Assembly: GCA_020846275.1 (NCBI GenBank)
Contig: JADLEG010000183.1
Span: forward strand, 9,693-73,692
Source: Alphaproteobacteria bacterium
GTDB lineage: Bacteria; Pseudomonadota; Alphaproteobacteria; JAEULC01
Length of the DNA: 64,000 nucleotides
Direction: 5' to 3'
This document shows, piece by piece, positions 1-54,279 of the stretch (positions are counted from its first letter, which is position 1; every line of letters starts with the position of its first letter). The notes below the pieces were generated by a model. That model was not told the origin of the DNA. It saw only the letters and a program-made list of their open reading frames with translations, and searched no databases. Position numbers and translations under genes: made by a program.

Positions 1-75
1 CCATCCCGCGCCGCCCAGCCGCGCGGCCAGCGATGCGCGCGGAAAGCCAGGCCCGGCAAGCGCCGCCGCGGTCAT
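1..75 (-). CDS. 5' end (N-terminal ~25 aa) of a downstream gene running off the window; probably an ABC transporter permease of the same operon
   Basis: The ATG at 73-75 on the minus strand overlaps the TGA stop of the upstream ATPase gene (ATGA coupling). The N-terminus MTAAALAGPGFPRASLAARLGGAGW is hydrophobic. The frame stays open to the window edge. Confidence 0.3.
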   Translation of the reverse strand, partial: MTAAALAGPGFPRASLAARLGGAGW

Positions 76-1163
76 AGCGCGACCGCCGCGACATCGCCCG
101 CGTGCCAGGAAACCCGCACGCTCTGCCCCACGCCAAGCGTCCGGCCGCGCAAGGGCGGCGATTGCACCGCCAAGGCCCGGGCCCCGAGCGCGACGCGATA
201 GTTCACCAGGTTGCCGAGATGCGAGACATGATCGACCCGCCCGACCAGGCCGGACGCGGTCGCCTCGGCCGCCTCGATGCACACCCGCTCCGGGCGCAGC
301 ACCAGCCAGGCGGTCTGGCCGACCGCGCAGTTCGCCGGCGCCGCGACATCGAAGCTGCCGATGCCGTCCACCGCGACACGGGCCTGTCCCTCGGCACGCG
401 CCTCGACGCGCCCCTCCCACTCGTTCACCGGCCCCAGGAATCCGGCGACGAAACGGTTGGCCGGCCGCTCGTAGAGCTCGGTCGGCGCGCCAAGCTGCTC
501 CACCTTGCCCGCCCGCATGACGGCGACGCGGTCCGACAGCGCGAAGGCCTCGTGGATGTCGTGGGTCACCAGCACGGTAGTGATGCCGACCCGCCGCTGC
601 AGCTCCAGCAGCTCGGCGCGCATGTCCTCGCGCAGGCGCGCGTCGAGGTTCGACAGCGGCTCGTCGAGCAGCAGCAGGTCCGGCTCGGTAACGATGGCGC
701 GGGCCAGCGCCACGCGCTGCTGCTGGCCGCCCGACAATTCGCTCGGCCGCCGCGCCTCGTAGCCGTCGAGCCGCACCGTGCCCAGCGCGCGCGCGACGCG
801 CGCCGTGCGCTCCTCGCGCGCCACGCCCTGCATCGACAGGCCGAAGGCGACGTTCTGGGCAACGCTCATGTGCGGGAACAAGGCGTAGTTCTGGAACACC
901 AGCCCGACGCGGCGCGTCCAGATCGGGGCGGCCGTCACGTCGCGACCGCCGATCGCGATGCGCCCGCCATCCGGCACCAGGATGCCCGAGACCATCCGCA
1001 GCAGCGTCGTCTTGCCGCAGCCCGACGGGCCGAGGACGGTGAAGAACTCGCCCGGACGCACCGACAGGTCGACGCCGGCCACCGCCACGCTCAGACCGAA
1101 GCGCTTGATCAGCCCCGCGACGTCAAGCCCCGCCTGCGGCCGGGCACGCCCTTCCTGCGGCAT
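72..1163 (-). CDS. ABC transporter ATP-binding protein (PotA/FbpC-type, family-1 importer)
   Basis: 363 aa ORF. Walker A GPSGCGKTT, ABC signature LSGGQQQRVALARA, Walker B LLLLDEPLSNLD, and a C-terminal TOBE-like domain. ATG start at 1163. Confidence 0.9.
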   Translation of the reverse strand: MPQEGRARPQAGLDVAGLIKRFGLSVAVAGVDLSVRPGEFFTVLGPSGCGKTTLLRMVSGILVPDGGRIAIGGRDVTAAPIWTRRVGLVFQNYALFPHMSVAQNVAFGLSMQGVAREERTARVARALGTVRLDGYEARRPSELSGGQQQRVALARAIVTEPDLLLLDEPLSNLDARLREDMRAELLELQRRVGITTVLVTHDIHEAFALSDRVAVMRAGKVEQLGAPTELYERPANRFVAGFLGPVNEWEGRVEARAEGQARVAVDGIGSFDVAAPANCAVGQTAWLVLRPERVCIEAAEATASGLVGRVDHVSHLGNLVNYRVALGARALAVQSPPLRGRTLGVGQSVRVSWHAGDVAAVAL

Positions 1164-1181
1164 CGAATCGGGCCGGAGGGA

Positions 1182-2237
1182 TTATTTCGGCGCGATCTCG
1201 CGCTCGAAGACCTTGATCCATTCCGGCCGCGCCTTGTTCACGACGTCGTAGTCGATCTTCTCCATCTTGGCCAACTCGGCGGCGGGGATCGGATTGCCGG
1301 TCACTTCCTTGTTCATCACCGTGTTGCCATATCCCTGCGCGCGGGCCTGCTGCACCTCGGTCGACAGCCACCAGTTAAGGAAGGCGCGCGCGCCCTGCGG
1401 GTTAGGCGCGTTCTTCATGATGCCCGCGGCCGTGCCGGTGAACATGACCGGCTTCGGCGTCACGTAGCTGACCGGAATGCCGCGCTTGCCGAGCTCGGCC
1501 GCGGTCGAGGAAGTGTAGAAGCCGACCGCGGCCGACCCGTCCTCGAGGAACTGGCCCATGCGGGCAAAGGTCGTCGGCCATTCCACGATTCCGGGCGCCA
1601 GCGCCTTCAGCGCCTTCACGCCGGGATCGATGTTGTTTTCGTTGCCGCCATTCAGCCGCGCCAGGATGATCATGACGTAGAGGCCATAGGTCGTGTTGGC
1701 CGGGGGCAGGACCATCGCGCCCTTGAACTCGGGCCGCGTCAGCTCCGACCATTCCGCCTTGGGCGGCGCCCAGCCCTTCTTCTTGAAGGTCTCGTGGTTG
1801 TAGATCAGCGAGAACACGTCGCCATAGGTCATGATGCCGTTCGGATTGAACTTCGCGGCATCCACGAGCTTGTCGATGTTCGGGATCTCCTTGGCGTCGA
1901 TCGGCACGAAGATGCCCTGGTCGTTGCCGGCCAGGAACGGCAGCAGGTCGGTCTGCACGACGTCGACCTGGGGCTTGTCCTTCTGCGCGATCGCCGCGGC
2001 AATGATCTCGGGGCCGGTCGCCTTGGGCACCAGCACGACCTTGTAGCCGGTGGCGGCGGTGAATTTCTGGTTCCAGCCCTCCTTCTCGAGAAACTGCTGG
2101 ACCGTGCCGCCCCAGGTCAGGAAGTAGACGGTCTTGTCGTCCTGCGCCGCCGCCCCGCCGGCCATCGCCGCCATCGCGGCCAGCAGCGCCGCCGCGCACG
2201 CGCCGATCCGCCCCAAGCCCCAATTGCCGAATGCCAT
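1182..2237 (-). CDS. ABC transporter periplasmic substrate-binding protein (extracellular solute-binding family 1; spermidine/putrescine/Fe3+-like)
   Basis: The ORF resembles PotD/AfuA-like binding proteins. Signal peptide MAFGNWGLGRIGACAAALLAAMAAMAGGAAAQ. I chose the internal ATG at 2237, which is preceded by a GAGGGGG Shine-Dalgarno sequence, over the GTG at 2258. It sits 18 bp upstream of the ATPase on the same strand. Confidence 0.8.
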   Translation of the reverse strand: MAFGNWGLGRIGACAAALLAAMAAMAGGAAAQDDKTVYFLTWGGTVQQFLEKEGWNQKFTAATGYKVVLVPKATGPEIIAAAIAQKDKPQVDVVQTDLLPFLAGNDQGIFVPIDAKEIPNIDKLVDAAKFNPNGIMTYGDVFSLIYNHETFKKKGWAPPKAEWSELTRPEFKGAMVLPPANTTYGLYVMIILARLNGGNENNIDPGVKALKALAPGIVEWPTTFARMGQFLEDGSAAVGFYTSSTAAELGKRGIPVSYVTPKPVMFTGTAAGIMKNAPNPQGARAFLNWWLSTEVQQARAQGYGNTVMNKEVTGNPIPAAELAKMEKIDYDVVNKARPEWIKVFEREIAPK

Positions 2238-2402
2238 GACTGCCCCCTCGAATTCCACCGCGTAACCAAGACGGCAATTGCCGTGCCGTCCCGTCGACCG
2301 CGCGCAAGAGCGAAAGCCCGATCTTAGCGGCAGGGGCGCGTCGTCAGCAACCGGCGGGCTTGGGCCGCAGCGCGTATCTAGAGCCGATACTTTCCCGGGC
2401 GG

Positions 2403-3290
2403 TCAGCCGCCGTCGAGCGGCCGCACCGTGACCGCCACGTCCAGGCTGTGCGTACCGCCCCCCAGGATGACCCCGCGCAGCGGCGTCACGTCCGAGAAAT
2501 CGCGGCCATAGGCGACGACGATATGCTCGTCGCGCACGACAAGGTCGTTGGTTGGATCGAAATCCACCCAGCCCAGCGCCTCGCCGCACCAGGCCGACAC
2601 CCAGGCATGGCTGGCGTCGGCGCCGCGAAGCCCGGCCGCATCGGCCGGCGGATAGGTGCGGATGTAGCCCGATGCGTAGCGCGCGGGCAGGCCAAGCCCC
2701 CGCAGCCCGGCAATCATCAGGTGGGCGAAGTCCTGGCACACCCCGCGCCGCGTCTCCATCACGCGGGCCACCGGCGTCGAGATGTCGGTCGAACCCGGCA
2801 CGTAGGCGAACTCGCGCCGAATGCGGGCCGTCAGGTCCCGCAGGCCGGCGACGATGCCCCGCCCCGGCGCAAAGGATTGCGCGGCGAAGGCGGTCGATGC
2901 CGGCTCGCGCCCGGCCTGCGGCGAGTTGTAGGCGAATTCGGCCACCTCCGGCCGCGCGGGGAACCCGTCCGCGCCGATCGACGCCGCGACCTGCGCCCAG
3001 GCCTCGCCTTCCGGCAGGTCCGCCGGATCGGCGCGCGCGACATCAACATCGGCGTCCAGGGTCACGCTGAACGTGTCGTGTCCCGCCTCGATCGCGACGT
3101 GGTGGACCGCATTGCCGAAATGGTCGCGGAACGCCACGTTGCGCGACGGTTCGGGCGCGATCCCCAGGCGATAGTCGAGCAGACGCTGCCCGATCACCGC
3201 CAGCGGCGTCAGTCGCAGCAGGTGCAGGCCAAGGTCGACCGTCGCGCCATAGGCGTAGCGCGTCTCGTGGCGGACGGCGTAGCGCGTCAT
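2403..3290 (-). CDS. transglutaminase-like family protein (small, about 295 aa)
   Basis: The N-terminus MTRYAVRHETRYAYGATVDLGLHLLRLTP is the typical bacterial transglutaminase-like N-terminal region, followed by the TGase core (…CQDFAHLMIAGLRGLGLPARYASGY…). The ORF-track N-terminal extension of 174 aa in a GC-junk frame was rejected. The ATG at 3290 overlaps the stop of the upstream gene (ATGA). Confidence 0.8.
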   Translation of the reverse strand: MTRYAVRHETRYAYGATVDLGLHLLRLTPLAVIGQRLLDYRLGIAPEPSRNVAFRDHFGNAVHHVAIEAGHDTFSVTLDADVDVARADPADLPEGEAWAQVAASIGADGFPARPEVAEFAYNSPQAGREPASTAFAAQSFAPGRGIVAGLRDLTARIRREFAYVPGSTDISTPVARVMETRRGVCQDFAHLMIAGLRGLGLPARYASGYIRTYPPADAAGLRGADASHAWVSAWCGEALGWVDFDPTNDLVVRDEHIVVAYGRDFSDVTPLRGVILGGGTHSLDVAVTVRPLDGG

Positions 3291-5776
3291 GCCGGCAAGG
3301 TCTCGCGCGCGGGGCGCGGCGCGAAGCCGAGCGGATGGGCCGTCACGACGTGCGAGAAATAGGTGTGGGTGATCATCTCGGACAGCGCCGTCAGGTCGCC
3401 GGCGATGCGGTCGAGCATCTCGACGACGGGCCCGACCGGCATGGCGTCCTGCACCTTCTCCACGCTCTCGACCGAGAAGTCCATCACCGTGCGGATCAAC
3501 TCGCGCACCAAGGTGCGCGCCGCCTCGAAGCCCGGCGACGGGGCCAGGGTCTCGATGAAATCGCGCAGGCGCACGATCTGGAACATCAGCGCCCGCGGGT
3601 TGCTGGCGTCCGCCACCACCAAGTCGAGCGCGCGCGCGGGGTGCAGCTCGGTCGGATAGCGGGTGCGGTACGTGATGGTGGAATCGCAGAGTTCGAGCGC
3701 CAGGCGCAGCCCGATCTCGAGCTGGGCCGCCGGGCCGCGCAGCACCGGCGCCAGCGTGTTGGCGATCGCCATGCCGCGTTCGATCCGCCGGCCGATGTCG
3801 AGAAAGCGCCACCCCGCGCCGCGCGTCATGTTCTCGGCCGCCAGCCCGGCGAAGGCGGCGATGCCGCGGATCAGGTCATCAAGCGCATCGAGCAGCCGGT
3901 CCATGTCGCCGTCGGCCGCGACCAGCTGCCCGCGCACCTCGTCGAGCAGATGGTTGAGGGTACGCCACATGTCGAGCGACAGGCGGTCGCGCACCGTGAA
4001 CGTCAGGCGCCGGATCGCGTCCAGGCAATCCTGCACCACGCCCTCCGGCGCCGTCGCGGCCTTGGCGATGCCGCCGGCGAAATTGCGGCCGTCCACGGGC
4101 GAACCGGCGATGGTCGCGCTGATCCACCCGTTGCGCTGCATGGCGCCGGCCAGGCGCGCAAGCTCGGCCATGTCGCGCGGGCCGAGCCCGCCGCCGGTCA
4201 GCCGGTTCATCACCGCGCGGAATACGCGCGCGGCGGCGTCCAGGCGCTCGACATAGCGGCCGAGCCAGAACAGGTCGTCGGCGACGCGGCTTTGCAGCGC
4301 GCCGGCGGACCGGTGCGCCCTGGCCGGCGTCATCGGCGCCGAGGGCGTGCGGACATCCTGTTCCTCCGTGGTCAGCACCCAGACGTCCTTGGCGACGCCG
4401 CCATGCAGCAGGCGGCTGCGGTACATGTCGTCGGCCTCGACCACGCGGGCCACGCCGCCGGGCATCACCGACCATTCGGACCCGTTCCACAACGCCACCA
4501 CGCGCAGCACGATCGGGCGCGGCGACAGTCCGTCCTTGCCAAGATTGGGCGCGACGCCGTGCACCACGCGCTCCAGCGCCACGAAGGCCTCGGGGTCGGC
4601 CGTCAGCCGGGCCAGCAGCCCCGCCTGCTCGTCGCGCGACAACCCGGCCGGGTCGACCGGCTTCTGGCCGGGATCGAAGGTCGGGCGGATCACGTAGGAG
4701 CCGAGCGACGCGCGAACGGCGTCGATCGCCGCCTTCTGCCCGCACCACCACGTCGTCACCGCCGGCAGCTTCAGCTCCTCGCCGAGCAGCCGGCGCGCCA
4801 GCGAGGGAAGGAACGGCGCGATCGCCGGCGTCTCGACCAGCGCCGATCCCGGCAGGTTCAGGATCGCAACCTTGCCGGCGCGCGCGGCATCGACCAGCCC
4901 GGCGACGCCCAGCGCCGAATCCTCGCGCAGCTCCAGGGGGTCGCAATACTCGCCGTCGACCCGGCGGTAGATCACGTCGACGCGCAGCAGCCCTTCCAGC
5001 GTCTTCAGGTACACGACATTGTCGCGGACCGTCAGGTCCGAGCCTTGCGCCAGGGTGATGCTGAGCTCGCGCGCCAGGTAGACATGCTCGAAATAGGCGT
5101 CGTTGTAAGGGCCGGGCGTCAGCAGCACGGCGCGCGAATCGTCGCCGTGATGCATTCCCAGGCGCTGCAGGCTCGCCTGCCACACATCCAGGAAGGGCTG
5201 CAGCCGGCGCATCGGGTAGACGCGGAAGGCCTCGGGAAAGGTTCGCGCCAGCAGGCGGCGGTTGCGCAACGCGTAGCCGACGCCCGACGGCGCCTGGGTG
5301 CGATCGGCGAACACGCGCCAGCCTCCGTCCGGCATGCGCACCAGGTCGGCGGCATAGACCTGCAGGTGCCCGGCGCCGCCGGCCTGGCCGACATGGCGCA
5401 TCGGGCGCAGGAACGCGGGGTTGGCATAGACGAGATAGGGCGGGACCAGACGGTCGGCGATCAGGCGCTGCTCGCCGTAGAGATCGGCCAGCACGAGGTC
5501 GAGCAGGCGGGCGCGCTGCGCCAGACCCTCGGCAATGACCCGCCACTCGTCCTCGGGCAGGATCAGCGGCAGCAGGTCGATCGACCACGGCGCGCGCTTC
5601 GGCTCCCGGCCATAGATGGCGACGAACTCGTCGGCATGCGCCAAGTGCGCGCCGGCGCGCGCCTGCTTCTCGGCGAGCTGCGCCGGCGGCATGCCCCAGA
5701 CCGTCGCCATGATGTTGCGCCAATGCGGCCGCAGCGCACCCTGGCCGGTTGCCATCTCGTCGTAGGCCGTGCTCAT
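3287..5776 (-). CDS. circularly permuted ATP-grasp (type 2) protein fused to an alpha-E domain (DUF404/DUF407 + DUF403-like), about 829 aa
   Basis: The N-terminus MSTAYDEMATGQGALRPHWRNIM is typical of CP-ATP-grasp-2 proteins. The C-terminal half resembles alpha-E domain proteins. I chose the ATG at 5776. The ORF track starts at a TTG at 5875, which is a possible alternative. Confidence 0.75.
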   Translation of the reverse strand: MSTAYDEMATGQGALRPHWRNIMATVWGMPPAQLAEKQARAGAHLAHADEFVAIYGREPKRAPWSIDLLPLILPEDEWRVIAEGLAQRARLLDLVLADLYGEQRLIADRLVPPYLVYANPAFLRPMRHVGQAGGAGHLQVYAADLVRMPDGGWRVFADRTQAPSGVGYALRNRRLLARTFPEAFRVYPMRRLQPFLDVWQASLQRLGMHHGDDSRAVLLTPGPYNDAYFEHVYLARELSITLAQGSDLTVRDNVVYLKTLEGLLRVDVIYRRVDGEYCDPLELREDSALGVAGLVDAARAGKVAILNLPGSALVETPAIAPFLPSLARRLLGEELKLPAVTTWWCGQKAAIDAVRASLGSYVIRPTFDPGQKPVDPAGLSRDEQAGLLARLTADPEAFVALERVVHGVAPNLGKDGLSPRPIVLRVVALWNGSEWSVMPGGVARVVEADDMYRSRLLHGGVAKDVWVLTTEEQDVRTPSAPMTPARAHRSAGALQSRVADDLFWLGRYVERLDAAARVFRAVMNRLTGGGLGPRDMAELARLAGAMQRNGWISATIAGSPVDGRNFAGGIAKAATAPEGVVQDCLDAIRRLTFTVRDRLSLDMWRTLNHLLDEVRGQLVAADGDMDRLLDALDDLIRGIAAFAGLAAENMTRGAGWRFLDIGRRIERGMAIANTLAPVLRGPAAQLEIGLRLALELCDSTITYRTRYPTELHPARALDLVVADASNPRALMFQIVRLRDFIETLAPSPGFEAARTLVRELIRTVMDFSVESVEKVQDAMPVGPVVEMLDRIAGDLTALSEMITHTYFSHVVTAHPLGFAPRPARETLPA

Positions 5777-5887
5777 CGCCTGTCCGCGCGGGCCCTGCCC
5801 GTCCTGGCCGAAGTGGCTGATTCGCGTGGACAAAGTGTCGCCGATCGGCCCGCCAAATTCCAGCGCAGGCGCCAAAGCCGCCTGCCG

Positions 5888-8800
5888 CTAGGTCGCGTGG
5901 CGCAGGTCCAGCGTGACGGGGTGCTCGCCGGCCGGAACGGCGATTCGCGCCTCGTAGGATGCCGGCGTATGCCCGATCGCGAAGAAGCGCGCCCGCCGGC
6001 GCGTCTCGGCCTCGTTGGCATTGACCGGAAACCGATCGAAATTGCGCCCGCCGGGATGGGCGACATGGTAGGTGCAGCCGCCGACCGCGCGCCCGTTCCA
6101 GGTGTCGAACAGGTCGAACACCAGGGGCGCATCGACCGGGATCGTCGGGTGCAGCGCGCGCGGCGGCTGCCAAGCGCGATAGCGCAGCCCGGCGACATAC
6201 TCGCCTCTCCGCCCGGTTGCGCGCAGCGGCACCGTGCGCCCGTTGCAGACCAGCACGTGGCGCTCCTCGGTGGCGCCGCTCAGCTTCACCTGCATGCGCT
6301 CGACCGAACTGTCGACGTAGCGCACCGTGCCGCCGGCGCCGGCATCCTCGCCCAGCACGTTCCACGGCTCCAGCGCGTGGCGCAGCTCGATCTCGATGCC
6401 GCGATAGGCCGCCTGGCCGATCAGTGGAAAGCGGAACTCGTGATGCGCGGCGAACCACTGCGGATCGAGCGCGTAGCCGGCGCGCCGCAGATCGTCGAGT
6501 ACGTCGGCGAAGTCGTTGGCGACGAAATAGGGCAGCATGAACTCGTCGTGCAGCCGCGTGCCGTAGCGCATCAGCCGGCGGTCATAGGGCTGGCGCCAGA
6601 ACGTCGCCAGCAGCGCGCGCAGCAGCAGTTGCTGCGCCAGGCTCATGCGCGCGTGCGGCGGCATCTCGAAGGCGCGCAGTTCCAGCAGGCCGCGACGGCC
6701 GGCGGCGCCGTCGGGCGAGTACAGCTTGTCGATGCAGAACTCGGCGCGGTGCGTGTTGCCGGTCACGTCCACCAGCACGTCGCGCAAGGCACGGTCGACC
6801 AGCCAGGGCGGCGGCGTCTCGGCGCGCTCCAGCGCCTTGAAGGCCAGCTCGAGCTGGTAGGTGGCGTCGTCGCGACCCTCATCGACACGCGGATGCTGGC
6901 TGGTCGCGCCGATGAACAGCCCCGAGAACAGGTAGGACAGCGAGGGATGGTTGTGCCAGTAGCCGACCAGGCTCCTTAGCAGGTCCGGCCGGCGCAGCAG
7001 CGGCGAGTCCGCCGGGGTGGAACCGCCGATCACGATGTGGTTGCCGCCGCCGGTGCCGACATGCCGGCCGTCCAGCATGAACTTCTCGGTCACCAGCCGC
7101 GTCGCGCGCGCCTCCTCGTAGACCGTGGTCGTATTGCGGACCAGTTCGTCCCAGGAGTCGGCGGGATGGACGTTGACCTCGATCACGCCCGGATCCGGCG
7201 TCACCGAGAAATGGTTGAGCCGCGGGTCGAAGGGCGGCGGGTAGCCCTCGAGAATCACCTTCTCCCCGCGATCGCCCGCCACATCCTCGACCGCGGCGAG
7301 GAGGTCGAGATAGTCCTCGGCCATCTCGACGGGCGGCATGAAGAGATGCAGCAGCCCGTTGCGCACCTCGGCGCACAGCGCGGTCCGCACGACATCGCTG
7401 GCCGACCAGCCCTGCAATGGCTTCAGCGGCGCCTGCTCGCGCCGTCCCTGCGGCGCCGCGTTGGGACGCACACCGTTTCGCGGCTCGCCGCGAGGCGCCT
7501 GAAATGCCTGGCGCGGCGGCAAGCCCCCGCGCGGCGCCATCGGGTCGGTCGGGTAGACATAGGGGTAGTCGCTTTCCTGGACCCAGGGCAGCGAGTCGAG
7601 CGGCAGGCGATAACCCATCGGCGAGTCGCCGGGGATGAGGAACATGGTGTCGGAGCGGAAGAACCATCGCCCGCTGCGCCAGTAACGCTGGCCATTCGTG
7701 CCCGCGCGGGCCAACGGCAAGGCGTAGCCGACGATCGCGTCCAGCCCCTGCTCGAACACCCGCGCCAGGCGCTCGCGCTCCAGAGGGTCGTGCAACTCGC
7801 TCTTCAGCGGGTCGACGTTGACCGGCAGCCGGCGCTCCTTCCACAGGTAGTACCAGGCGTCCTCGTAGCCCGCCGTGCAAAACGCGGGGTCGACCTGCAG
7901 CCGCTCGGCCAGTTGCGAAATGAAGCCGCGCGCGTCGTCGTGCGTCAGCCGGCCGTTGGTGTCCTCGTCCGACGCGAACAGGCGCTTGTCGCGCCAGACC
8001 GGCTCGCCATCGCGCCGCCAGTGGCAGCCCAGCGCCCAGCGCGGCAATTGCTCGCCCGGATACCACTTGCCCTGGCCGTAGTGCAGCAGGTAGCCGCCGG
8101 CGAAACGGTCGGCCAGGCGACGCAGCAGGCGGCCGGCATAGCGCCGCTTGGTGGGGCCCAGCGCGTGGGTGGTCCACTCGGCGCCGTCCGGGTCGTCGGC
8201 GGCGACGAAGGTCGGCTCGCCGCCCATGGTCAGCCGCATGTCGGCCGCCGCGATGTCGGCGTCCACCTTGCGGCCGAGCGCCAGCAGGCCCTGCCACTTC
8301 GCATCGCTGTAGGGCCTGGTGATCCGCGGCGCCTCGTCGATCCGCGTCACCGACATGCGGAAATCGAGGGTCGATTTCGCCTTCTCGATCGAGCCGGTGA
8401 TGGGCGCGGCGCTGCCGGGCTCGGGCGAGCACGCCAGCGGAATATGCCCCTCGCCTGCCATCAGTCCGGACGTGGGATCGAGCCCGATCCAGCCGGCGCC
8501 GGGCAGGTAGACCTCGCACCACGCATGCAGGTCGGTGAAATCGGCGATCGGGCCGACGGGGCCGTCAAGCGGCTTCTCGTCGGCGACGAGCTGGATCAGG
8601 TAGCCGGACACGAAGCGCGCGGCCAGGCCAAGATGGCGCAGCATCTGCACCAGCAGCCAGCCGCTGTCGCGGCACGAGCCCTCGCGCTTCGCCAGCGTTT
8701 CCTCGGGCGTCTGCACGCCGGGCTCCAGACGCACGATGTAGCCGACGTCGCGCTGCACGCGCTGGTTCAGCTCGACCAGGAAATCGATCGTCCGCCGCGG

Positions 8801-9211
8801 CCGGCGATCGACGCCGTCGAGGTAGCGCTGGAGCAACGGCCCCGGCTCGGCCGCCCGCCGGAACGGCGCCAGCTCCTCGTCCAGCACGTGGTCGTATTCG
8901 AACGGACAGGTCTCGGCCGCCGGCTCGAGGAAGAAATCGAACGGATTGATCACCGCCATGTCGGCGATCAGGTCGACCGTGAAGCAGAGCCGGTCCGTCC
9001 TTTCCGGGAACACGAACCGCGCCAGGTAGTTGGCCTGGGGATCCTGCTGCCAGTTGATGAAGTGCTGGGCTGGCTCGGCCTTCAGCGAATAGGCGAGGAT
9101 CGGGGTCCTGGAATGCGGGGTCGGCCGCAAGCGCACCACCTGCGGCCCGACGCCGACCAGCCGGTCGTAGCGATATTCCGTGCGGTGATGCAGCGCGACA
9201 TGGATTCCCAC
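5888..9211 (-). CDS. large transglutaminase family protein (Bact_transglu_N + transglutaminase core + DUF2126-like C-terminal region), 1107 aa
   Basis: The N-terminus MGIHVALHHRTEYRYDRLVGVGPQVVRLRP is the Bact_transglu_N signature. The length and architecture match the ~1100-aa proteins that co-occur with CP-ATP-grasp/alpha-E genes. GTG start with a GAGGGGAG Shine-Dalgarno sequence upstream. Confidence 0.8.
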   Translation of the reverse strand: MGIHVALHHRTEYRYDRLVGVGPQVVRLRPTPHSRTPILAYSLKAEPAQHFINWQQDPQANYLARFVFPERTDRLCFTVDLIADMAVINPFDFFLEPAAETCPFEYDHVLDEELAPFRRAAEPGPLLQRYLDGVDRRPRRTIDFLVELNQRVQRDVGYIVRLEPGVQTPEETLAKREGSCRDSGWLLVQMLRHLGLAARFVSGYLIQLVADEKPLDGPVGPIADFTDLHAWCEVYLPGAGWIGLDPTSGLMAGEGHIPLACSPEPGSAAPITGSIEKAKSTLDFRMSVTRIDEAPRITRPYSDAKWQGLLALGRKVDADIAAADMRLTMGGEPTFVAADDPDGAEWTTHALGPTKRRYAGRLLRRLADRFAGGYLLHYGQGKWYPGEQLPRWALGCHWRRDGEPVWRDKRLFASDEDTNGRLTHDDARGFISQLAERLQVDPAFCTAGYEDAWYYLWKERRLPVNVDPLKSELHDPLERERLARVFEQGLDAIVGYALPLARAGTNGQRYWRSGRWFFRSDTMFLIPGDSPMGYRLPLDSLPWVQESDYPYVYPTDPMAPRGGLPPRQAFQAPRGEPRNGVRPNAAPQGRREQAPLKPLQGWSASDVVRTALCAEVRNGLLHLFMPPVEMAEDYLDLLAAVEDVAGDRGEKVILEGYPPPFDPRLNHFSVTPDPGVIEVNVHPADSWDELVRNTTTVYEEARATRLVTEKFMLDGRHVGTGGGNHIVIGGSTPADSPLLRRPDLLRSLVGYWHNHPSLSYLFSGLFIGATSQHPRVDEGRDDATYQLELAFKALERAETPPPWLVDRALRDVLVDVTGNTHRAEFCIDKLYSPDGAAGRRGLLELRAFEMPPHARMSLAQQLLLRALLATFWRQPYDRRLMRYGTRLHDEFMLPYFVANDFADVLDDLRRAGYALDPQWFAAHHEFRFPLIGQAAYRGIEIELRHALEPWNVLGEDAGAGGTVRYVDSSVERMQVKLSGATEERHVLVCNGRTVPLRATGRRGEYVAGLRYRAWQPPRALHPTIPVDAPLVFDLFDTWNGRAVGGCTYHVAHPGGRNFDRFPVNANEAETRRRARFFAIGHTPASYEARIAVPAGEHPVTLDLRHAT

Positions 9212-9405
9212 GTGGCGGGGCTCCCCTCAACCTGACGACTTAGGTCCAGGGTAGCAATTCCGAGGCCATTGCGCCTTTCCGACACACGGGCGGAACCCCG
9301 GCCACCGGGTGCCCAAATTTAAGGCGCTTTGGAACGGACCTGTGACACAATACCGCCTCGGGCTGATAGGCTGCGGCACAACGTCAAGAAAGAGGGATCC
9401 GATCC

Positions 9406-9963
9406 ATGGCCGAACGCATCGTCTTTCGTACCGGAGAAGCACTCGTGGCCGGCGGGCCGCCGAACACCGCCGCCGAACCGGAGGTCGTGATCGGTGCGCT
9501 GGACGGACCCGTGGGCACGGCGATCGCCACCCAGCTTGCCGGCCAGGTGAAAGGTCACAGCCGGGTCTTCGCCATCCTGAACATCGACGTCCAGGTTCGC
9601 CCCGTGACCTTGATGGTCAGCAAGGTGACGGTGCAAGGGCCGAAGGCGCTCAAGTACACCAACATCCTCATGGGCACGGTGCAGGCCGCCATGGCCAACG
9701 GCGTGCTGGACGCCGTTCGCGCCGGCGACATTCCCAAGGACCAGGTCAACGATCTCGGCATCATCTGCGCGGTATGGCTGGCGCCGCAGATCGTCGACGT
9801 CGCGGACCTCGACCACCGCAAGCTGTTCGACATCCATCGCGAGGCCATGGCCAAGGCGATCCGAAAGGCGATGCGCCACGAGCCCACGATCGACTGGCTG
9901 TTGGCCAACCAGGACAAGATCACGCACAAGTATTTCCAGATGGGCCTCGACAAGCAGATCTGA
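9406..9963 (+). CDS. formaldehyde-activating enzyme (Fae) family protein / Fae-like
   Basis: 185 aa. It aligns along its length with Fae (5,6,7,8-tetrahydromethanopterin hydro-lyase): GEALVAGG…EVVIGALDGP…, …LMVSKVTV…, …AAMANGVLDAVRAGDIPKDQVNDLGIICAVWL…. Confidence 0.75.
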   Translation: MAERIVFRTGEALVAGGPPNTAAEPEVVIGALDGPVGTAIATQLAGQVKGHSRVFAILNIDVQVRPVTLMVSKVTVQGPKALKYTNILMGTVQAAMANGVLDAVRAGDIPKDQVNDLGIICAVWLAPQIVDVADLDHRKLFDIHREAMAKAIRKAMRHEPTIDWLLANQDKITHKYFQMGLDKQI

Positions 9964-10006
9964 CCGGGGCCGCCGGCCAACTGCCGCGGTCGGTTCGAGC
10001 ATGATA

Positions 10007-10042
10007 GGGCTCCGGAATTCCCCGGGGCCCTTTTTTGTTTTC
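10007..10042 (+). terminator. rho-independent terminator downstream of the fae-like gene
   Basis: GC hairpin GGGCTCCGG-AATTC-CCGGGGCCC followed by TTTTTTGTTTT. Confidence 0.6.
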
Positions 10043-10271
10043 ACGTGGAACCACGGCCAAGTTCAGCCGTTTTATGGTGGGTGTTTGCGGCTTTCAGTAT
10101 CTCAATAGTACCTTGCAATAATACCGGCGTTTTCCTACGCATCTATTTTGGTTTAGCAAAGACCCTCCCGCACGCTTCTTTGTCCTACCTTTACATTCCT
10201 GTCAGCTGACTTTACAAGCCGCGAGATGCGCGACCCCGGATTCCTTGGCGATCGCGCAGCTTTTCTTCATG

Positions 10272-10287
10272 TGGCCTGGATATTGCT
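10272..10287 (+). promoter_or_regulatory. putative sigma-54 (RpoN) -24/-12 promoter upstream of the PEP-CTERM gene
   Basis: TGGCCT-GGATA-TTGCT matches the TGGCAC-N5-TTGCA consensus at the GG and GC core with correct spacing. It lies about 45 bp upstream of the ATG at 10331, inside an unusually AT-rich 290-bp leader. Confidence 0.4.
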
Positions 10288-10330: not shown

Positions 10331-10999
10331 ATGTCGCTTTACAGACTTAGCGGAGGATTCATCGGAGCCATTCTGGGTATTGCATGCCTTGCCGGTACGG
10401 CATCGGCCCTGCCCAGCCAGACGACCTTCACCGCCGCGGGGCTCGGCAGCATCGGGGATTGGACCCTGGTGGGAACACCGGAGACCTTCGGTTCAGGCGG
10501 CGGCAACGGCGCATTCTCGTCGGGCGGCCTGGCCAATTTCGAGTTGCGCCTTGGCGACTATCGCAACATCTTCGGCGTCGCGCTGACCAACAGCACCGGC
10601 CTGGTGCCGATCTTCGACACCTCGTCCGATGCGGCCGGCGCCAGCGAAGCCTTCGCGCCGCCGGCCAATCCGTTCGTCTTCTACTTCCAGACGATCTGCA
10701 GCAGCTGCTCGAGCGATGACGGCATCATCTTCTCGGACGGCGACCGGACGAACGACGGGCTGGCCCAGCTCGACATGGCGATCTACCAGCAGGGCAGCAT
10801 CTTCGCCTTCTTCTTCGACGATGGCGGCCCGGATGGCGGAATCCTCTGCGGGATCGGCATCGGCTGCAACGACGACAACGACTTCAACGACATGGTCGTG
10901 ACGGTCAGCGCCAACAGCGTGCCCGAGCCGATGACGCTCGGTCTCCTGGGCGCCGGCCTGCTGGGCCTCGGCTTCGCCGGGCGCCGCCGCCGCAGCTAG
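10331..10999 (+). CDS. PEP-CTERM sorting-domain secreted protein (exosortase substrate)
   Basis: N-terminal signal peptide (…GIACLAGTASA). Low-complexity Gly/Ser/Asp/Cys-rich body. The C-terminus VPEPMTLGLLGAGLLGLGFAGRRRRS is the canonical PEP motif plus a TM helix plus an Arg cluster. Confidence 0.8.
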   Translation: MSLYRLSGGFIGAILGIACLAGTASALPSQTTFTAAGLGSIGDWTLVGTPETFGSGGGNGAFSSGGLANFELRLGDYRNIFGVALTNSTGLVPIFDTSSDAAGASEAFAPPANPFVFYFQTICSSCSSDDGIIFSDGDRTNDGLAQLDMAIYQQGSIFAFFFDDGGPDGGILCGIGIGCNDDNDFNDMVVTVSANSVPEPMTLGLLGAGLLGLGFAGRRRRS

Positions 11000-11070: not shown

Positions 11071-12171
11071 TCAATCGTCCAGCAGTGCGAAAATCGCATT
11101 GGGTGCCGGTTTCACGGCGACCGTCGCGCCGGGCTCCTGGCGCCCCTCCTCCAGACACTCGACCACGATCTCGGTGCCTCCGACGTCAACCAGGATGATG
11201 CTGCTCGATCCCTGGAAGGCGCTGCGCACCACCCGGCCGTGCCCCGCGCCGTCTGCGCGCTTTGCCCCCGCCTCGATCGTCAGCAGCGTGGCGCGAACGG
11301 CCACGGTGCAGCGCGCGCCGGCGGCGCGGTCGTCGCGCCACCCCCGCGCGTTCAGCGTGCCGAGCGCCGTGTCGACATGGACGACCTGCCCCGTCCGGCC
11401 GCGCACGGTGCCGTCCAGCAGGTTCTGGATGCCGACGAATTCGGCGGCGAAGCGCGTCCGCGGCCGGCGATAGACATCCTCGGGCGGGCCCGCCTGCTCG
11501 ATCTTCCCCGCGCGCATGACGACGACGCGATCGCCCAGGGTCATCGCCTCGAGCTGGTCATGCGTCACGTAGATCGACGTGAACGGCACCTTCTGGCGCA
11601 GGGCCAGCAATTCCATGCGCATGCGCTCGCGCAGCCGCGCGTCGAGATTCGACAGGGGCTCGTCGAACAGGATCGCCCGCGGCTTTCCCACCATGGCGCG
11701 CGCGAGCGAGATGCGCTGCTGTTGGCCCCCCGAAAGCTCGTGGATGTAGCGTCCGCCGATGCCGCCGAGGCCGACCCAGTCGAGCATCGCCGTGGCCTTT
11801 GCGGCGATCTCGGCCTTCGAGAGCCCGCTGGACAGGAGCGGATAGGCGATGTTTTCCGCGACCGTCATGTGCGGCCACAGGGCATAGCTCTGGAAGACCA
11901 TGCCCAGCCGGCGTTCCTCGGGCGGCACTTCCGTGCGGCGGGCATGATCGAAGGCGACCGTGTCGCCGATCATGATACGGCCTTCGTCGGGCGTGATCAG
12001 CCCTGCGATCGATCGCAGCACCGTGGTCTTGCCGCATCCGCTGGGTCCGAGCAGCACGGTGCATTGGCCGGCCGGGAACGCCAGGCTGAAGTCGTCGAGC
12101 GCTTTCACCTCCGACTGGCGTCCGTAGACTTTGCTGAGGCCCGATACCGACAGGTCGACAAGCTTGTCCAT
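11071..12171 (-). CDS. ABC transporter ATP-binding protein (FbpC/PotA-type)
   Basis: Walker A GPSGCGKTT, signature LSGGQQQRISLARA, Walker B ILFDEPLSNLD, and a C-terminal TOBE domain. Confidence 0.9.
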   Translation of the reverse strand: MDKLVDLSVSGLSKVYGRQSEVKALDDFSLAFPAGQCTVLLGPSGCGKTTVLRSIAGLITPDEGRIMIGDTVAFDHARRTEVPPEERRLGMVFQSYALWPHMTVAENIAYPLLSSGLSKAEIAAKATAMLDWVGLGGIGGRYIHELSGGQQQRISLARAMVGKPRAILFDEPLSNLDARLRERMRMELLALRQKVPFTSIYVTHDQLEAMTLGDRVVVMRAGKIEQAGPPEDVYRRPRTRFAAEFVGIQNLLDGTVRGRTGQVVHVDTALGTLNARGWRDDRAAGARCTVAVRATLLTIEAGAKRADGAGHGRVVRSAFQGSSSIILVDVGGTEIVVECLEEGRQEPGATVAVKPAPNAIFALLDD

Positions 12172-12224
12172 CTATTCCTGCATGGTCTTCTTGGGGAAAC
12201 GGATCATCGGCTCTTCCTCCGCGG

Positions 12225-13913
12225 TCATGCCGCGCTGAACCGGGCAAACTTCCACAGCAGCGCCACCGGCAACAGGCCCAGCACCATCAGCAACAGCGAA
12301 TAGACGGCGAGCTCCGGGTAGAACCCGTTGGACCACACGTCCATCAGCCCGACCGACAGCACGATCGTGCCGGGGTTGTAGAGCAGGATCACCAGCGAGA
12401 TCTCGCGCAGGATCACCACGTAGATCAGCAGCCAGCTTCCCAGCAGCGCCGGGCGCATCAGCGGGATGTCGATCCGGCGCAGCGTCGCCAGCCAGGAATG
12501 GCCGGAGACCCGGGACGCATCCTCCAGGTCGGCGTGGATGCCGTGCAGCGCGCTGCCGACGAACTGCATGGCGATCGGGATATGCGCGGTGACATAGGCG
12601 AGCAGCAGTATCCACAGCGTGCCGTAGAGCCCGCCGGGTATGGCGATCCAGGCGCCCAGGATACCCAGGCCCAGCGCGATGCCCGGGATTCCCAGCGGCA
12701 GAACCAGCGCATACTCGACCACGCGGGACAGGCGCCCGCGCAGGCGGATGACGTACCAGGCCAGCGCGATCGCCAGCAGCACGCAAACCGTGGCGCCCAG
12801 CACCGCCAGGAACAGGCTGTGGCGGGCGGACGGCCACACCTGCGGATACTTGAACAGGATGTAGCTGAAGTTATCGAGCGTGAAGTTCTTGGGCGTGAAG
12901 GCGTAGGGCGCCCAGTACTTCATGAAGGCCATCGAGCTGACCGCGAGCATCGGGATGACCGAGGAGCTGAGCGCGAAGACCATGGCGACGACCGCCAGCG
13001 GATAGCGCATCCGGCCCAGCCGGAACGGGATCGTCGTCGCACCCTTGCCGCCCAGCAGCGTGAACCGGCCACCGCGCGACAGCGCCCGGCGCTGGAAATA
13101 GATGCACACCAGGCCGAAGGCGACCAGCAGAAGTCCCTGCGCCGCCGCCATGCCCGGGCGCGGCGGGAACGAGTTCGAGTTCTGCCAGATCAGGCTGGGC
13201 AGCAGGTAGATGCGCGACTTCAGGCCGACCGTGGCGGGGATGATGAAATCCCCCGCGCTCATGATCAGGACCAGCAGCAGCGCGGCCAGCAGCGCCGGGC
13301 GCTGCAGCGGCAGGATGATCGTCGCGAGCAGCCGCAGCCGCCCCGCGCCGGAGACGCGCGCCGCCTCCTCGACCGCCGGATCGCTGTTGCTCAAGCCCGC
13401 CGCCACCAGCAGGTAGACATAGGGCGTCAGGAACAGGCCGGTGATCCAGACGATGCCGGCCATGGTGTTGACGTTGACCAGCGTCGTCTTCGACCCCATC
13501 GCCAGCGAGGCGATGATGTTGACGAAGCCGGCGTTCGGGTCGGCGATCGCGATCCAGCCGATCACCAGGATGAAGGGCGGCACCAGCATCGGCAGCACGG
13601 CCAGGATGCCGATCCAGCGTCCGCCCGGCATGTCGGTCCGGACCGCGACGACCGCCAGCCCCACCCCCACCACCATCGCGAGCGCGGACGACCCCGCGGC
13701 ATAGATGACGGTGTTGATCAGGGCATCGCGGCTGCGGCCGGATTCGAACAGCGCGGCGAGCCATTGCAGGGTCAGCTCGCTGCCGATGTCGTCCTTGGAA
13801 ATGCTGCGCAGGACGACGGAGACGACCGGATAGCTGACCATCACAACGGTCAGCACGCAGATCATGCCGAGGACCAGCTGGTCCCAGGACAGGGATCGCC
13901 GCCACATCGGCAC
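12225..13913 (-). CDS. ABC transporter permease, fused two-domain (FbpB/AfuB-type)
   Basis: 562 aa with two tandem BPD-type transmembrane permease domains. GTG start. Confidence 0.85.
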   Translation of the reverse strand: MPMWRRSLSWDQLVLGMICVLTVVMVSYPVVSVVLRSISKDDIGSELTLQWLAALFESGRSRDALINTVIYAAGSSALAMVVGVGLAVVAVRTDMPGGRWIGILAVLPMLVPPFILVIGWIAIADPNAGFVNIIASLAMGSKTTLVNVNTMAGIVWITGLFLTPYVYLLVAAGLSNSDPAVEEAARVSGAGRLRLLATIILPLQRPALLAALLLVLIMSAGDFIIPATVGLKSRIYLLPSLIWQNSNSFPPRPGMAAAQGLLLVAFGLVCIYFQRRALSRGGRFTLLGGKGATTIPFRLGRMRYPLAVVAMVFALSSSVIPMLAVSSMAFMKYWAPYAFTPKNFTLDNFSYILFKYPQVWPSARHSLFLAVLGATVCVLLAIALAWYVIRLRGRLSRVVEYALVLPLGIPGIALGLGILGAWIAIPGGLYGTLWILLLAYVTAHIPIAMQFVGSALHGIHADLEDASRVSGHSWLATLRRIDIPLMRPALLGSWLLIYVVILREISLVILLYNPGTIVLSVGLMDVWSNGFYPELAVYSLLLMVLGLLPVALLWKFARFSAA

Positions 13914-13939
13914 GGCTCCGGTCGTCCCCGCGGGTGAGG

Positions 13940-14989
13940 CTACTTAACGTGCTTGTCCCATTCGGCCAGCAGTTCCTGGGTCTTGCCAATGATCATCTTG
14001 TAGTCCGGCTGGACGAAGCTGTGCACCTTGCCGAGCTCGGCCAGCGATCCGGCCTTCGGCGCGCTCGCCTCGGGATGGGTCGGGATCGTGGCGCCGGCGA
14101 CATTGATCAGCGTCTGGCCCTCGCCCGAGCAGGCGAAGTCGCAGAACAGCCGCGCCGCGTTGGGATGGGGGGCCTTGCTGAAAACCGAGATGTTGCCGCC
14201 GAACAACACGGTGTTCTTGGGCACCACGCCGCCGATCGGCGCGCCGGTGTCGGCGAGCTGGATGACGCCGAAAGAGTTCGTCACGCCCATGTCGATCTCG
14301 CCCGATACGATCGCCTGCGACATGGCGTTGGTGCTGGCGTAGAGCTTGGGCTTGTTGGCGCCGAAGCCCTGCAGGTAGGAAGGCCCATAGAGCTGGCTGA
14401 CCATGACCTGCCAGGCCAGCGTGGTCGCGGTCACGTGCGGGTCGAGCGAGCCGAAGCGCCCTTTCCACTTGGGATCCAGCAGGTCCTTCCAGTCCTTCGG
14501 CGCATCGGCGGGCTTCACCGTGTTGGTGTTCCACCCGAGCTGCGCCATGTACATGCGGATCAGCGTGTACTGCGGCGCCTTGTAGGCCGCGTCGATCTTG
14601 GCACGCTCGGGCGAGTCATAGGCGGCCAGGTACGGCACCAGCAGGCTGAGCGCCGGCTCCTCGATGATCAGCGCATCGGCCTGCGGGCGCCCGGCCGATT
14701 CCTCGGTCTGCACCCGCGTCGCGACGTCGGCCGATCCCGCGCGGTAGACCGACACCTCGATCCCGTATTTCTTCTTGAACGCCTCGGCGGCGGCGTTGTT
14801 GGGACCGGTCGAGGCCGAGCTGTACAGGCTGACCGTGCCCTCTTTCTTGGCCGCCTCGACTAGCTTGGGATCGCTGGCGGCGCCGGCGGGGAAGGACGGC
14901 AGCACCGATCCCGCCGCCGCGGCCGATGCGCCAAGCTTCAAGAGGGTTCTGCGGTCGATGCCGGAGGATTGAGAAAATTCCGTCTTCAT
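13940..14989 (-). CDS. ABC transporter substrate-binding protein (Fe3+/FbpA-like, family 1) with Tat signal
   Basis: Twin-arginine signal DRRTLLKLGASAAAAG. Periplasmic binding protein fold. First gene of an SBP-permease-ATPase operon on the minus strand. GGGGAGA Shine-Dalgarno sequence before the ATG. Confidence 0.8.
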   Translation of the reverse strand: MKTEFSQSSGIDRRTLLKLGASAAAAGSVLPSFPAGAASDPKLVEAAKKEGTVSLYSSASTGPNNAAAEAFKKKYGIEVSVYRAGSADVATRVQTEESAGRPQADALIIEEPALSLLVPYLAAYDSPERAKIDAAYKAPQYTLIRMYMAQLGWNTNTVKPADAPKDWKDLLDPKWKGRFGSLDPHVTATTLAWQVMVSQLYGPSYLQGFGANKPKLYASTNAMSQAIVSGEIDMGVTNSFGVIQLADTGAPIGGVVPKNTVLFGGNISVFSKAPHPNAARLFCDFACSGEGQTLINVAGATIPTHPEASAPKAGSLAELGKVHSFVQPDYKMIIGKTQELLAEWDKHVK

Positions 14990-21704: not shown

Positions 21705-22697
21705 ATGTCCAAGGCGCTCAACGCACTACGCAACGCCGGCTTCGGGCTGGCGCTGGGGCTGGCGGCGACCGGCGCGCCCGCCTGGTCCGCGACCAACACC
21801 GTCGTCATCTACAACGCCGTCAGCACCAAGCTGATCCAGGCCTTCGCCGAGGAGTTCCAGAAGCAGAACCCGGGCGTCAAGGCCGAGATCATCAGCGGCG
21901 GCAGCGGCGAATTGCTGACCCGCATCAAGGCCGAGCGCGCCAATCCGCGCGGCGACGTGCTGGTCGGCCCGGATGCCGACGTGTTCGACGCCGAGATCGA
22001 CCTGTTCGAAGCGTATGATTCCAAGGAGAAGGCCGGCTTCGACAAGGCCGCCGTGCATCCCCAGGGCAAGTACTACGGTTTCTCCACCAACTTCCAGGCC
22101 TTCATCGTCAACACCAAGATGATGCCGCTGGACAAGGCGCCGAAGAGCTGGGCCGACCTCGCGAAGCCGGAATTCAAGGGCAAGATCCTGATGGCCAACC
22201 CGGCCCAGTCCGGCTCGGCCTATTCGCAGATGCACCAGATCCTGATGCTCTATGGCTGGGACGTGATGGGGAAGATCATCCAGAACGCCACCTTCGTGCC
22301 CAGCTCGAAGCTGGCGTTCCAGAACGTAGCCAAGGGCGAGATCGCGGTCGGGCTGACCAGCGAGTTCAACATCCTGGTATCGAAGCTCGAGGGCAACCCG
22401 GTCGACTTCGTCTATCCCAGCGACGGGACCGCGCTGATCAACGACGCCAACGGCATCATCAAGGGCGGGCCGAACGGCGAGAACGCGCGGAAGTTCATCG
22501 ACTACGTCAGTTCGAAGCAGGCCCACACGATCCTGGTCGACCTCGACAAGCGGCGCTCCGCCCGGCTCGACGTAGCACCGCCTCCCGGCCTGCCGGACGC
22601 CAAGGGCATCAAGACCTTCGCCTACGACTCGGCCGGCGCCGCCAAGAACCGCACCGAGGAGCTCGAGAAGTTCGACAAGCTCTTCTCGGCGAAATAG
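21705..22697 (+). CDS. ABC transporter substrate-binding protein (family 1)
   Basis: Signal peptide …ALGLAATGAPAWSA. PotD/AfuA-like binding protein. 18 bp after the epimerase gene. Confidence 0.85.
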   Translation: MSKALNALRNAGFGLALGLAATGAPAWSATNTVVIYNAVSTKLIQAFAEEFQKQNPGVKAEIISGGSGELLTRIKAERANPRGDVLVGPDADVFDAEIDLFEAYDSKEKAGFDKAAVHPQGKYYGFSTNFQAFIVNTKMMPLDKAPKSWADLAKPEFKGKILMANPAQSGSAYSQMHQILMLYGWDVMGKIIQNATFVPSSKLAFQNVAKGEIAVGLTSEFNILVSKLEGNPVDFVYPSDGTALINDANGIIKGGPNGENARKFIDYVSSKQAHTILVDLDKRRSARLDVAPPPGLPDAKGIKTFAYDSAGAAKNRTEELEKFDKLFSAK

Positions 22698-22775
22698 TTT
22701 CCTCTCTCCTTTGAGCGGGGAGCCCCGGCACGGGCTCCCCGCGCTCTTTTCACCGATCGCGCCTGGACCAGACGC

Positions 22776-32717: not shown

Positions 32718-32763
32718 CCGCGTCCTGGCCGCGCCGGCCGGGGCCGGCGTCGGGAGCTGAGCG

Positions 32764-33750: not shown

Positions 33751-33757
33751 GGCCGCA

Positions 33758-53972: not shown

Positions 53973-54000
53973 CTCCCGTCGAGTTGCGCACGCTTGGGTG

Positions 54001-54045
54001 CTGCCATAATTTGAGATATCATATTGCGAATAACATTTCCGGTCA
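54001..54045 (-). promoter_or_regulatory. sigma-70-like promoter with overlapping operator-like motif (copy 3 of 3, minus orientation)
   Basis: The reverse complement reads TTGACC-N18-TATGAT followed by ATCTCAAATTATGG. It lies about 35 bp upstream of the SBP start at 53972. Confidence 0.45.
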
Positions 54046-54279
54046 AGCGCCGAATCGGTAACCGGGATGTCCGCGGTCGTGTTCGTAAAGACCATGCCCA
54101 AGCCCGTCGGTTGACGGTTGTAGTTTCGTCTGCCACGCGCGCGGGCCGCGCGCCGCGCAGACCAAATGGCCACTCCTCATCCGCAGGCCCGCGCCCAGGG
54201 TCTAATTGCCCGACGGCCTTCGCCTGGACATCGCTTGCTGAAATCTGCAGACCGCCGCCCAGCCGCGACGCCAAGCGGC

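Follow-up and report, generated by a model that had tools for sequence, protein, structure and literature searches.

A typical DUF2126 operon in an alphaproteobacterial genome and its candidate sigma-54 promoter

We analysed a 64,000-nucleotide (nt) stretch of contig JADLEG010000183.1 from an alphaproteobacterial metagenome-assembled genome (MAG), here called the window. Three consecutive minus-strand genes, A, B and C, lie at 9211..2403 in this stretch of about 70% G+C. They encode a transglutaminase protein with a large DUF2126 region (A), a circularly permuted (CP) ATP-grasp domain fused to an Alpha-E domain (B) and a small transglutaminase-like protein (C). The locus carries every tested defining feature of the DUF2126/CP-ATP-grasp–Alpha-E/transglutaminase neighbourhood; it is a typical, already annotated member of a known conserved cluster and holds no new component. 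What the analysis adds is limited to a sigma-54 promoter motif, its conservation across phyla and the way its position shifts with the gene array; the regulation itself had already been published for single species.

The three genes and their domains

The gene models of A, B and C are identical to GenBank MCC6470139.1, MCC6470138.1 and MCC6470137.1 from an alphaproteobacterial MAG, and the protein encoded by A is 100% identical to its entry. GenBank names the three 'transglutaminase family protein' and 'circularly permuted type 2 ATP-grasp protein', and no curated NCBIfam name is attached to A, B or C. A preliminary description, made from the letters of this DNA alone, had placed three minus-strand genes of about 1100, 830 and 295 residues (aa) here; they are present on that strand with 1107, 829 and 295 aa. 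The profile hidden Markov model (HMM) check it proposed gave strong Pfam matches for each of CP_ATPgrasp_2, Alpha-E, Transglut_core, Bact_transglu_N and DUF2126 (Table 1). Its statement that all three genes are translationally coupled holds for B and C, which share an ATGA overlap, and fails for A and B, which stand 111 nt apart. Translational coupling is thus limited to the B/C junction.

Protein A unites three domains in one chain of about 1100 residues, as expected of the DUF2126 'large transglutaminase' (Rv2566-like) family, and at least 8000 homologues retrieved by a protein search share this domain set. The triad Cys180/His229/Asp245 is invariant in 120 homologues. AlphaFold (AF2) models built with 120 homologues reached a predicted local distance difference test score (pLDDT) of 77 and a predicted template modelling score (pTM) of 0.76 at full length, and 74 and 0.78 for residues 296-1107. 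By Foldseek, the N-terminal part of the model resembles the fold of 3isr (E 1e-12).

The DUF2126 region is a predicted second ligase. The preliminary description called A a large transglutaminase, which captures the transglutaminase domains and misses the predicted amidoligase role of the remaining 830 residues. Published profile analysis assigns the Rv2566 family to ligases of the glutamine synthetase (GS)/GCS2 type (PMC2588565), and the Pfam description of DUF2126 also gives it as a predicted GS/GCS2-type amidoligase. The best Foldseek matches of the C-terminal part in the PDB, all weak, are YbdK/GCS2 structures (1r8g, E 0.03, probability 0.90; 1tt4, E 0.07), with glutamine synthetases next; for the full-length model, weak GS-family matches include 9qur (gamma-glutamylmethylamide synthetase) and 5dm3. 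These matches agree with the profile-based assignment, and this weak fold support points in the same direction, to a GS/GCS2-like ligase. The last ~180 residues match beta-sandwich folds. At the sequence level, phmmer and hmmsearch gave no link between DUF2126 and solved GS/GCS2 structures, hhalign of DUF2126 against E. coli YbdK was negative, and we found no solved structure that resembles the region by sequence. We also found no paper in the searchable literature that names DUF2126.

The least confident loops in both AlphaFold models fall at residues 382-389, 710-722, 764-778 and 818-823 (window ~8068..6743). They coincide with the most invariant DUF2126 motifs, KWYPGE, DGRHVGTGGGNH, GxTSQHPRVDE and GNTHR, and are probably active-site loops that become ordered around a ligand.

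Protein B pairs a nearly complete CP-ATP-grasp match with a full-length Alpha-E match. It also matches PF04174 (Pfam E 2e-89), and its N-terminal half aligns with the structural-genomics entry 3n6x over residues 4-468 (E 5e-73). The Alpha-E motifs GRYVER (506-511) and GRRIER (662-667) are invariant in 67 sequences. We rejected TTG 5875, 12 nt past the stop of A, as a start that would nearly couple B to A, on the evidence of homologue N-termini and the 829-aa PGAP model. Homologues share a Met just before a conserved xxAYDE(L/M) motif, the sequence upstream of it is unconserved, and tblastn alignments start at residues 1-5 of the 829-aa form.

Protein C is built like the front of A. The two are paralogous (26% identity to the N-terminal part of A, E 1e-15), and C matches PDB entries 3isr (E 3e-11) and 6g49 by sequence. 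Its triad Cys185/His228/Asp245 is at least 97% conserved in 65 sequences. The N-terminus reads MTRYAVRHETRYAYG, and a hydrophobic, signal-peptide-like stretch is absent.

Table 1. Features of the operon and ABC uptake gene sets in the window
Feature	Position	Strand	Remarks
Candidate sigma-54 promoter TGGCCTCGGAATTGC	9254..9268	-	57 nt 5' of A GTG
Gene A	9211..5888	-	1107 aa; GTG start; ribosome-binding site GAGGGGAG
A, Bact_transglu_N (PF08379)	9196..8966 (aa 6-82)	-	Pfam E 2e-22
A, Transglut_core (PF01841)	8812..8474 (aa 134-246)	-	Pfam E 2e-15
A, DUF2126 (PF09899)	8386..5900 (aa 276-1104)	-	Pfam E 0, 1310 bits; profile positions 1-826 of 826
A-B intergenic spacer	5777..5887	-	111 nt
Gene B	5776..3287	-	829 aa
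B, CP_ATPgrasp_2 (PF14403)	5569..4442 (aa 70-445)	-	Pfam E 4e-133; profile 1-373 of 374
B, Alpha-E (PF04168)	4297..3356 (aa 494-807)	-	Pfam E 5e-64; profile 1-294 of 294
B-C ATGA overlap (stop of B/start of C)	3287..3290	-	translational coupling
Gene C	3290..2403	-	295 aa
C, Bact_transglu_N	3281..3045 (aa 4-82)	-	Pfam E 9e-23
C, Transglut_core	2846..2553 (aa 149-246)	-	Pfam E 2.5e-18
ABC uptake sets	72..2237, 11071..14989, 21705..23876, 30714..34873, 42118..44193, 52914..54173		

Conservation of the cluster and of its promoter motif

The three-gene order is conserved across phyla. We scanned 185,579 species-representative genomes, one per species; more than 600 contain a match to A, and the best 80 of these more than 600 loci were compared. 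Across the 80, A is 56-70% identical over its full length, in Alpha-, Beta- and Gammaproteobacteria, Acidobacteriota, Verrucomicrobiota and Planctomycetes. Of the 74 loci with enough sequence beyond A, 70 have a B homologue there on the same strand, 66 of them at no more than 410 nt; C follows B in 64 loci, mostly at -7 to +35 nt. Precomputed annotation of two close relatives gives A, B and C in this order too. The earlier claim of a conserved gene neighbourhood is therefore borne out, with the A-B-C arrangement in 70 of 74 loci from at least four phyla. The grasp/Alpha-E fusion that the preliminary description singled out is real here and no local peculiarity, since both halves share one reading frame in all 69 loci where both are visible. 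No further gene of at least 90 aa was consistently linked across the 80 loci (open reading frames, ORFs, below 90 aa were not clustered).

A second, related module precedes the cluster in a minority of genomes. Directly upstream of A, 12 of the 80 loci carry a paralogous set of unfused ATP-grasp and Alpha-E genes, often with a transglutaminase gene, whose products are 31-35% identical to B (L003, L006, L011, L022, L051, L053, L056, L057, L058, L060, L062 and L069; A match at ~10001). Together with the DUF2126 gene this set forms five- or six-gene arrays. The window contains no second paralogous module.

The gap between A and B is a general feature of the cluster. It measures at least 27 nt in all 70 related loci, with a median of ~125 nt, and the spacers are unrelated to each other in sequence and length. 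The spacer in the window has a short GC hairpin right after the stop of A and no U-tract. Its folding is not above that of shuffled sequences (z -0.12), which gives no sign of a structured RNA or attenuator in the spacer, and 2000..10200 holds no Rfam match. Simple scans found no internal promoter or terminator in the operon, and no sigma-54 motif in the spacer. Five related spacers (L009, L010, L016, L021 and L039) have strong hairpins directly after the A stop, followed in Azonexus L009 (13327..13433) by a U-tract, like an intrinsic terminator. These hairpins, and the U-tract in Azonexus, hint that A may be expressed above B-C in some lineages.

A sigma-54-type motif recurs upstream of A. 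In the window, TGGCCTCGGAATTGC presents -24/-12 elements with the GG-N10-GC spacing of sigma-54 promoters, and a scan of 2100..9500 found no sigma-70-like promoter. We defined a strict motif, TGGC-N7-TTGC within 250 nt upstream of A, with a background of 4.7e-5 per base per strand. It is present in 36 of 79 related loci, at -30 to -99, where about 0.9 would be expected. A relaxed score of at least 9/12 is reached by 52 of the 79 loci on the forward strand and by 14 of 79 in the reverse-strand control; at 11/12 or better the counts are 17 and 2. The motif occurs in Pseudomonas, Variovorax, Hydrogenophaga, Limnohabitans, Paraburkholderia, Reyranellaceae, Arenibaculum and Akkermansiaceae, and its variable bases differ between genera, so it is not one inherited sequence.

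The motif also keeps to the front of the array. In the 12 loci with a paralogous set before A, it is found before A in none and before the first gene of the set in 10.

This pattern fits published expression data. In Pseudomonas putida, PP_2685-2688 has been assigned to NtrB/NtrC control, with PP_2686-2688 induced 11-37-fold and PP_2685 only 1.1-4.8-fold (PMC7801951), and in marine metagenomes the abundance of these domains co-varies with that of urea-metabolism domains (PMC3597751). The conserved motif upstream of A fits the NtrC/sigma-54-dependent induction reported for homologous clusters under nitrogen limitation. To judge by the motif, a sigma-54 promoter upstream of A most likely drives transcription of the operon, with NtrC-type activation at low nitrogen; for this organism such regulation is inferred. 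Conservation of the promoter across phyla generalises scattered transcriptome reports, and we found no description of it in the searchable literature, including a 2025 comparative study of sigma-54 regulons. The conserved promoter, which shifts to the front of the paralogous module where that module precedes A, points to nitrogen limitation as the condition in which to seek the product or target.

Predicted activities and competing readings

We consider it probable that the locus is a typical DUF2126 operon, driven by sigma-54 and NtrC, whose two ligases and two thiol enzymes handle an amide conjugate. The three cytoplasmic proteins would supply two ATP-dependent carboxylate-amine ligases, the ATP-grasp enzyme of B and the GS/GCS2-like DUF2126 part of A. 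Both would couple a carboxylate, activated as an acyl-phosphate, to an amine. Their partners would be the papain-fold Cys-His-Asp enzymes at the N-terminus of A and in C, and each predicted ligase is indeed tied to such an enzyme, which is fused to it in A and encoded by the translationally coupled gene in B/C. The thiol enzymes may form a thioester with an amide substrate, perhaps of the gamma-glutamyl type, to be resolved by water (deamidation or cleavage) or by an amine (transfer). The net result would be an amide-linked conjugate that is formed and trimmed or turned over as part of nitrogen scavenging or recycling. The sole published activity evidence for the ligase class is the release of phosphate from ATP by the Yersinia bercovieri ATP-grasp homologue (PMC6376114).

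The cluster has a long record in comparative genomics. It was described by Iyer, Burroughs and Aravind in 2008 (PMC2588565) and also, as cited in PMC5666114 and PMC6376114, by Iyer et al. in 2009; none of these three papers (PMC2588565, PMC5666114, PMC6376114) reports an established function. The preliminary description of an amidoligase plus transglutaminase system with unresolved substrate and physiology says the same as they do. The cluster is one of the more widely distributed bacterial gene sets for which no substrate is known, with a version in Mycobacterium tuberculosis and a function open since 2008-2009. The window makes this long-standing question no more tractable than do model organisms with the same operon, and cultivable carriers include Pseudomonas, Burkholderia, Variovorax and Ferrovibrio.

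Two known gene clusters are close in structure. In M. tuberculosis, Rv2566 is the counterpart of A, and Rv2567 and Rv2569c are counterparts of B and C by annotation only. Like the Rv2566-type cluster, the operon pairs its large protein with a fused CP-ATP-grasp/Alpha-E protein and a small transglutaminase-like protein, all with full-length HMM matches; nothing structural sets it apart, and the copy studied here comes from an alphaproteobacterial MAG. The Anbu operon (P. putida PP_2685-2688, Y. bercovieri) has the same three domain families in the order grasp, Alpha-E, transglutaminase. It too is induced by nitrogen limitation through NtrC/sigma-54 (PMC7801951, PMC5666114), as the motif predicts here. 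Here, however, grasp and Alpha-E form one polypeptide, 31-35% identical to the stand-alone paralogues, the Anbu gene is missing and the first gene encodes an additional transglutaminase/GS-like ligase protein of 1107 aa. The operon derives from the ATP-grasp/Alpha-E/transglutaminase module of Anbu operons. We rejected its identity with an Anbu operon, as no Anbu gene stands beside C or A and no other partner of at least 90 aa is conserved across the 80 loci.

Other systems resemble it in their logic. DUF2126 is predicted to belong to the same GS/GCS2-like ligase superfamily as the Pup ligase PafA and the depupylase Dop (PMC2588565; the weak fold support is given above), and in both cases ligation would be paired with deamidation or cleavage. 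Unlike PafA/Dop, the operon has no Pup-like gene (as PMC2588565 reports for these neighbourhoods), proteasome or AAA ATPase nearby, and where PafA/Dop use a second GS-like protein for cleavage, the partner here is a papain-fold thiol enzyme. E. coli glutathionylspermidine synthetase/amidase (GspSA) likewise couples an ATP-dependent amide synthetase to a papain-like Cys-His amidase that works on an amide conjugate, and 3n6x, the solved relative of the B grasp domain, is named after it. The likeness is an analogy only: the GspSA amidase has a CHAP fold where the operon has a transglutaminase core, the architecture differs, and glutathione or polyamine substrates are unsupported here.

Several points weigh against a sigma-54-driven operon of paired ligases and thiol enzymes. 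On the regulatory side, the motif in the window matches the sigma-54 consensus modestly, with a score of only 9/12. The closest relatives (L082 and L083, 7940..7965; A 76-77% identical) conserve TTGGTACGCTTCTTGA about 60 nt upstream of A, which has the sigma-54 spacing but TTGA, not TTGC, at -12. Among the ORFs scanned in the window there is no gene for NtrC or another regulator, nor was an activator-binding site found. The conserved A-B spacer permits separate expression of A and B-C. On the biochemical side, co-expressed Anbu-operon proteins formed no detectable complexes (PMC6376114), and no peptidase activity was found for Anbu-operon proteins (PMC6376114, PMC5666114). Rv2567 failed to make gamma-aminobutyric acid (GABA)-trehalose (bioRxiv 10.64898/2026.04.15.718621), and Rv2569c has been reported as a surface serine-type protease (PMC11081392), a misfit with a cytoplasmic thiol enzyme.

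What the conjugate might be divides the main alternatives. On one account it is a small molecule: the ligases would gamma-glutamylate or amidate an imported amine or peptide and the thiol enzymes hydrolyse the conjugate, as in glutathionylspermidine synthetase/amidase or in the PuuA/PuuD and GmaS routes that use amines as nitrogen sources. Such salvage is possible, and we hold it tentatively. The solved structure nearest to the B grasp domain, 3n6x, entered the PDB as a putative glutathionylspermidine synthase, and gamma-glutamylmethylamide synthetase appears among the weak GS-family matches of A. A ligase fused to or paired with a thiol amidase has its parallel in GspSA. Domain abundance that tracks urea metabolism in marine metagenomes (PMC3597751) suits this account, as do the transporters and nitrogen-catabolic enzymes that neighbour the operon in the window and in close relatives, and a second sigma-54-like site before the adjacent ABC (ATP-binding cassette) substrate-binding-protein gene. 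Yet that neighbour is not conserved (binding protein in 0 of 80 loci), no metabolite is known, and for a simple salvage pathway, proteins of 1100 and 830 aa that carry Alpha-E and N-terminal beta-sandwich domains are unusually complex. Alternatively, the conjugate could be a protein, with the ligases attaching an amino-acid or peptide tag, or a cross-link, under nitrogen starvation; the transglutaminase-fold enzymes would then prepare the tag by Gln-to-Glu deamidation, as Dop does, or remove it, and the targets would be marked for turnover. This Pup-like account we regard as unlikely, although it draws on the placement of the DUF2126 ligase in the superfamily of the Pup ligase PafA (PMC2588565), on the proteasome homologue Anbu that adjoins the related module in many genomes, where tagging has been proposed (PMC5666114, PMC6376114), and on nitrogen-limitation induction, which suits protein recycling (PMC5491218, PMC7801951). 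The extreme conservation of A between phyla (56-70% identity) fits a conserved macromolecular partner. Against tagging, the cluster here has no linked gene for Anbu or another protease, no extra gene of at least 90 aa is conserved with the cluster (smaller ORFs were not clustered), the A-B spacers are unrelated in sequence and length, no Pup-like small ORF is reported in these neighbourhoods (PMC2588565), and a modified protein has never been reported. More improbable still is a bolder form of the idea, a cross-phylum sigma-54/NtrC nitrogen-starvation pathway in which the ligase-thiol pairs would deamidate and re-ligate gamma-glutamyl-type linkages in proteins, Pup-like without Pup or proteasome. 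If true, protein nitrogen would be recycled and the 56-70% identity of A would reflect a universally conserved protein target.

Readings outside nitrogen metabolism fare far worse. The counterpart of C by annotation, Rv2569c, is reported to have protease activity and cell-wall localisation (PMC11081392), which would make C a secreted or surface protease or virulence factor; we think this very improbable, and anti-phage defence with it. The start of C, MTRYAVRHETRYAYG, has no signal-peptide-like hydrophobic stretch, the activity reported for Rv2569c responds to serine-protease inhibitors but not to cysteine-protease inhibitors, which conflicts with the conserved Cys-His-Asp triad, and most bacteria that carry the cluster are free-living, in soil and water. 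A known anti-phage defence system was rejected because PADLOC matched none of A, B and C. A one-carbon (formaldehyde) link rests on the divergent Fae-like gene, which flanks a common intergenic region with A. We give it next to no credence, since no Fae homologue lies within 10 kb of the cluster in any of the 80 loci and close relatives have other neighbours.

Neighbouring genes

The operon is bordered by Fae before A and by an ABC substrate-binding-protein gene after C. The Fae-like gene (9406..9963, +) is genuine (PF08714 E 3e-55; TIGR03126 just above cut-off) and, as the preliminary description had it, divergent from the operon. A 194-nt intergenic region separates it from A. The association is incidental, and a functional link to Fae was rejected on its absence from the 80 loci. 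We rejected a functional link to the downstream ABC transporter on the same ground.

The binding-protein gene after C has weak PhnS/PotD-like NCBIfam matches. A near-consensus sigma-54 site, GGCACGGCAATTGC (2274..2287, -), lies 37 nt upstream of its ATG (2237). From this site we suggest that the transporter is under a nitrogen-regulated promoter of its own and that C is the last gene of the operon.

A third site, the strict TGGC-N7-TTGC motif TGGCCTGGATATTGC (10272..10286, +), stands 45 nt upstream of a 222-aa ORF (10331..10999) whose product ends in a PEP-CTERM sorting motif (PF07589, E 3e-5). This brings to three the sigma-54-like sites found at promoter positions within about 8 kb. ABC uptake genes are also unusually numerous in the window, with at least six sets of binding-protein, permease or ATPase genes (Table 1), which adjoin genes for oxidoreductases, a sulfatase and an enolase-superfamily enzyme.

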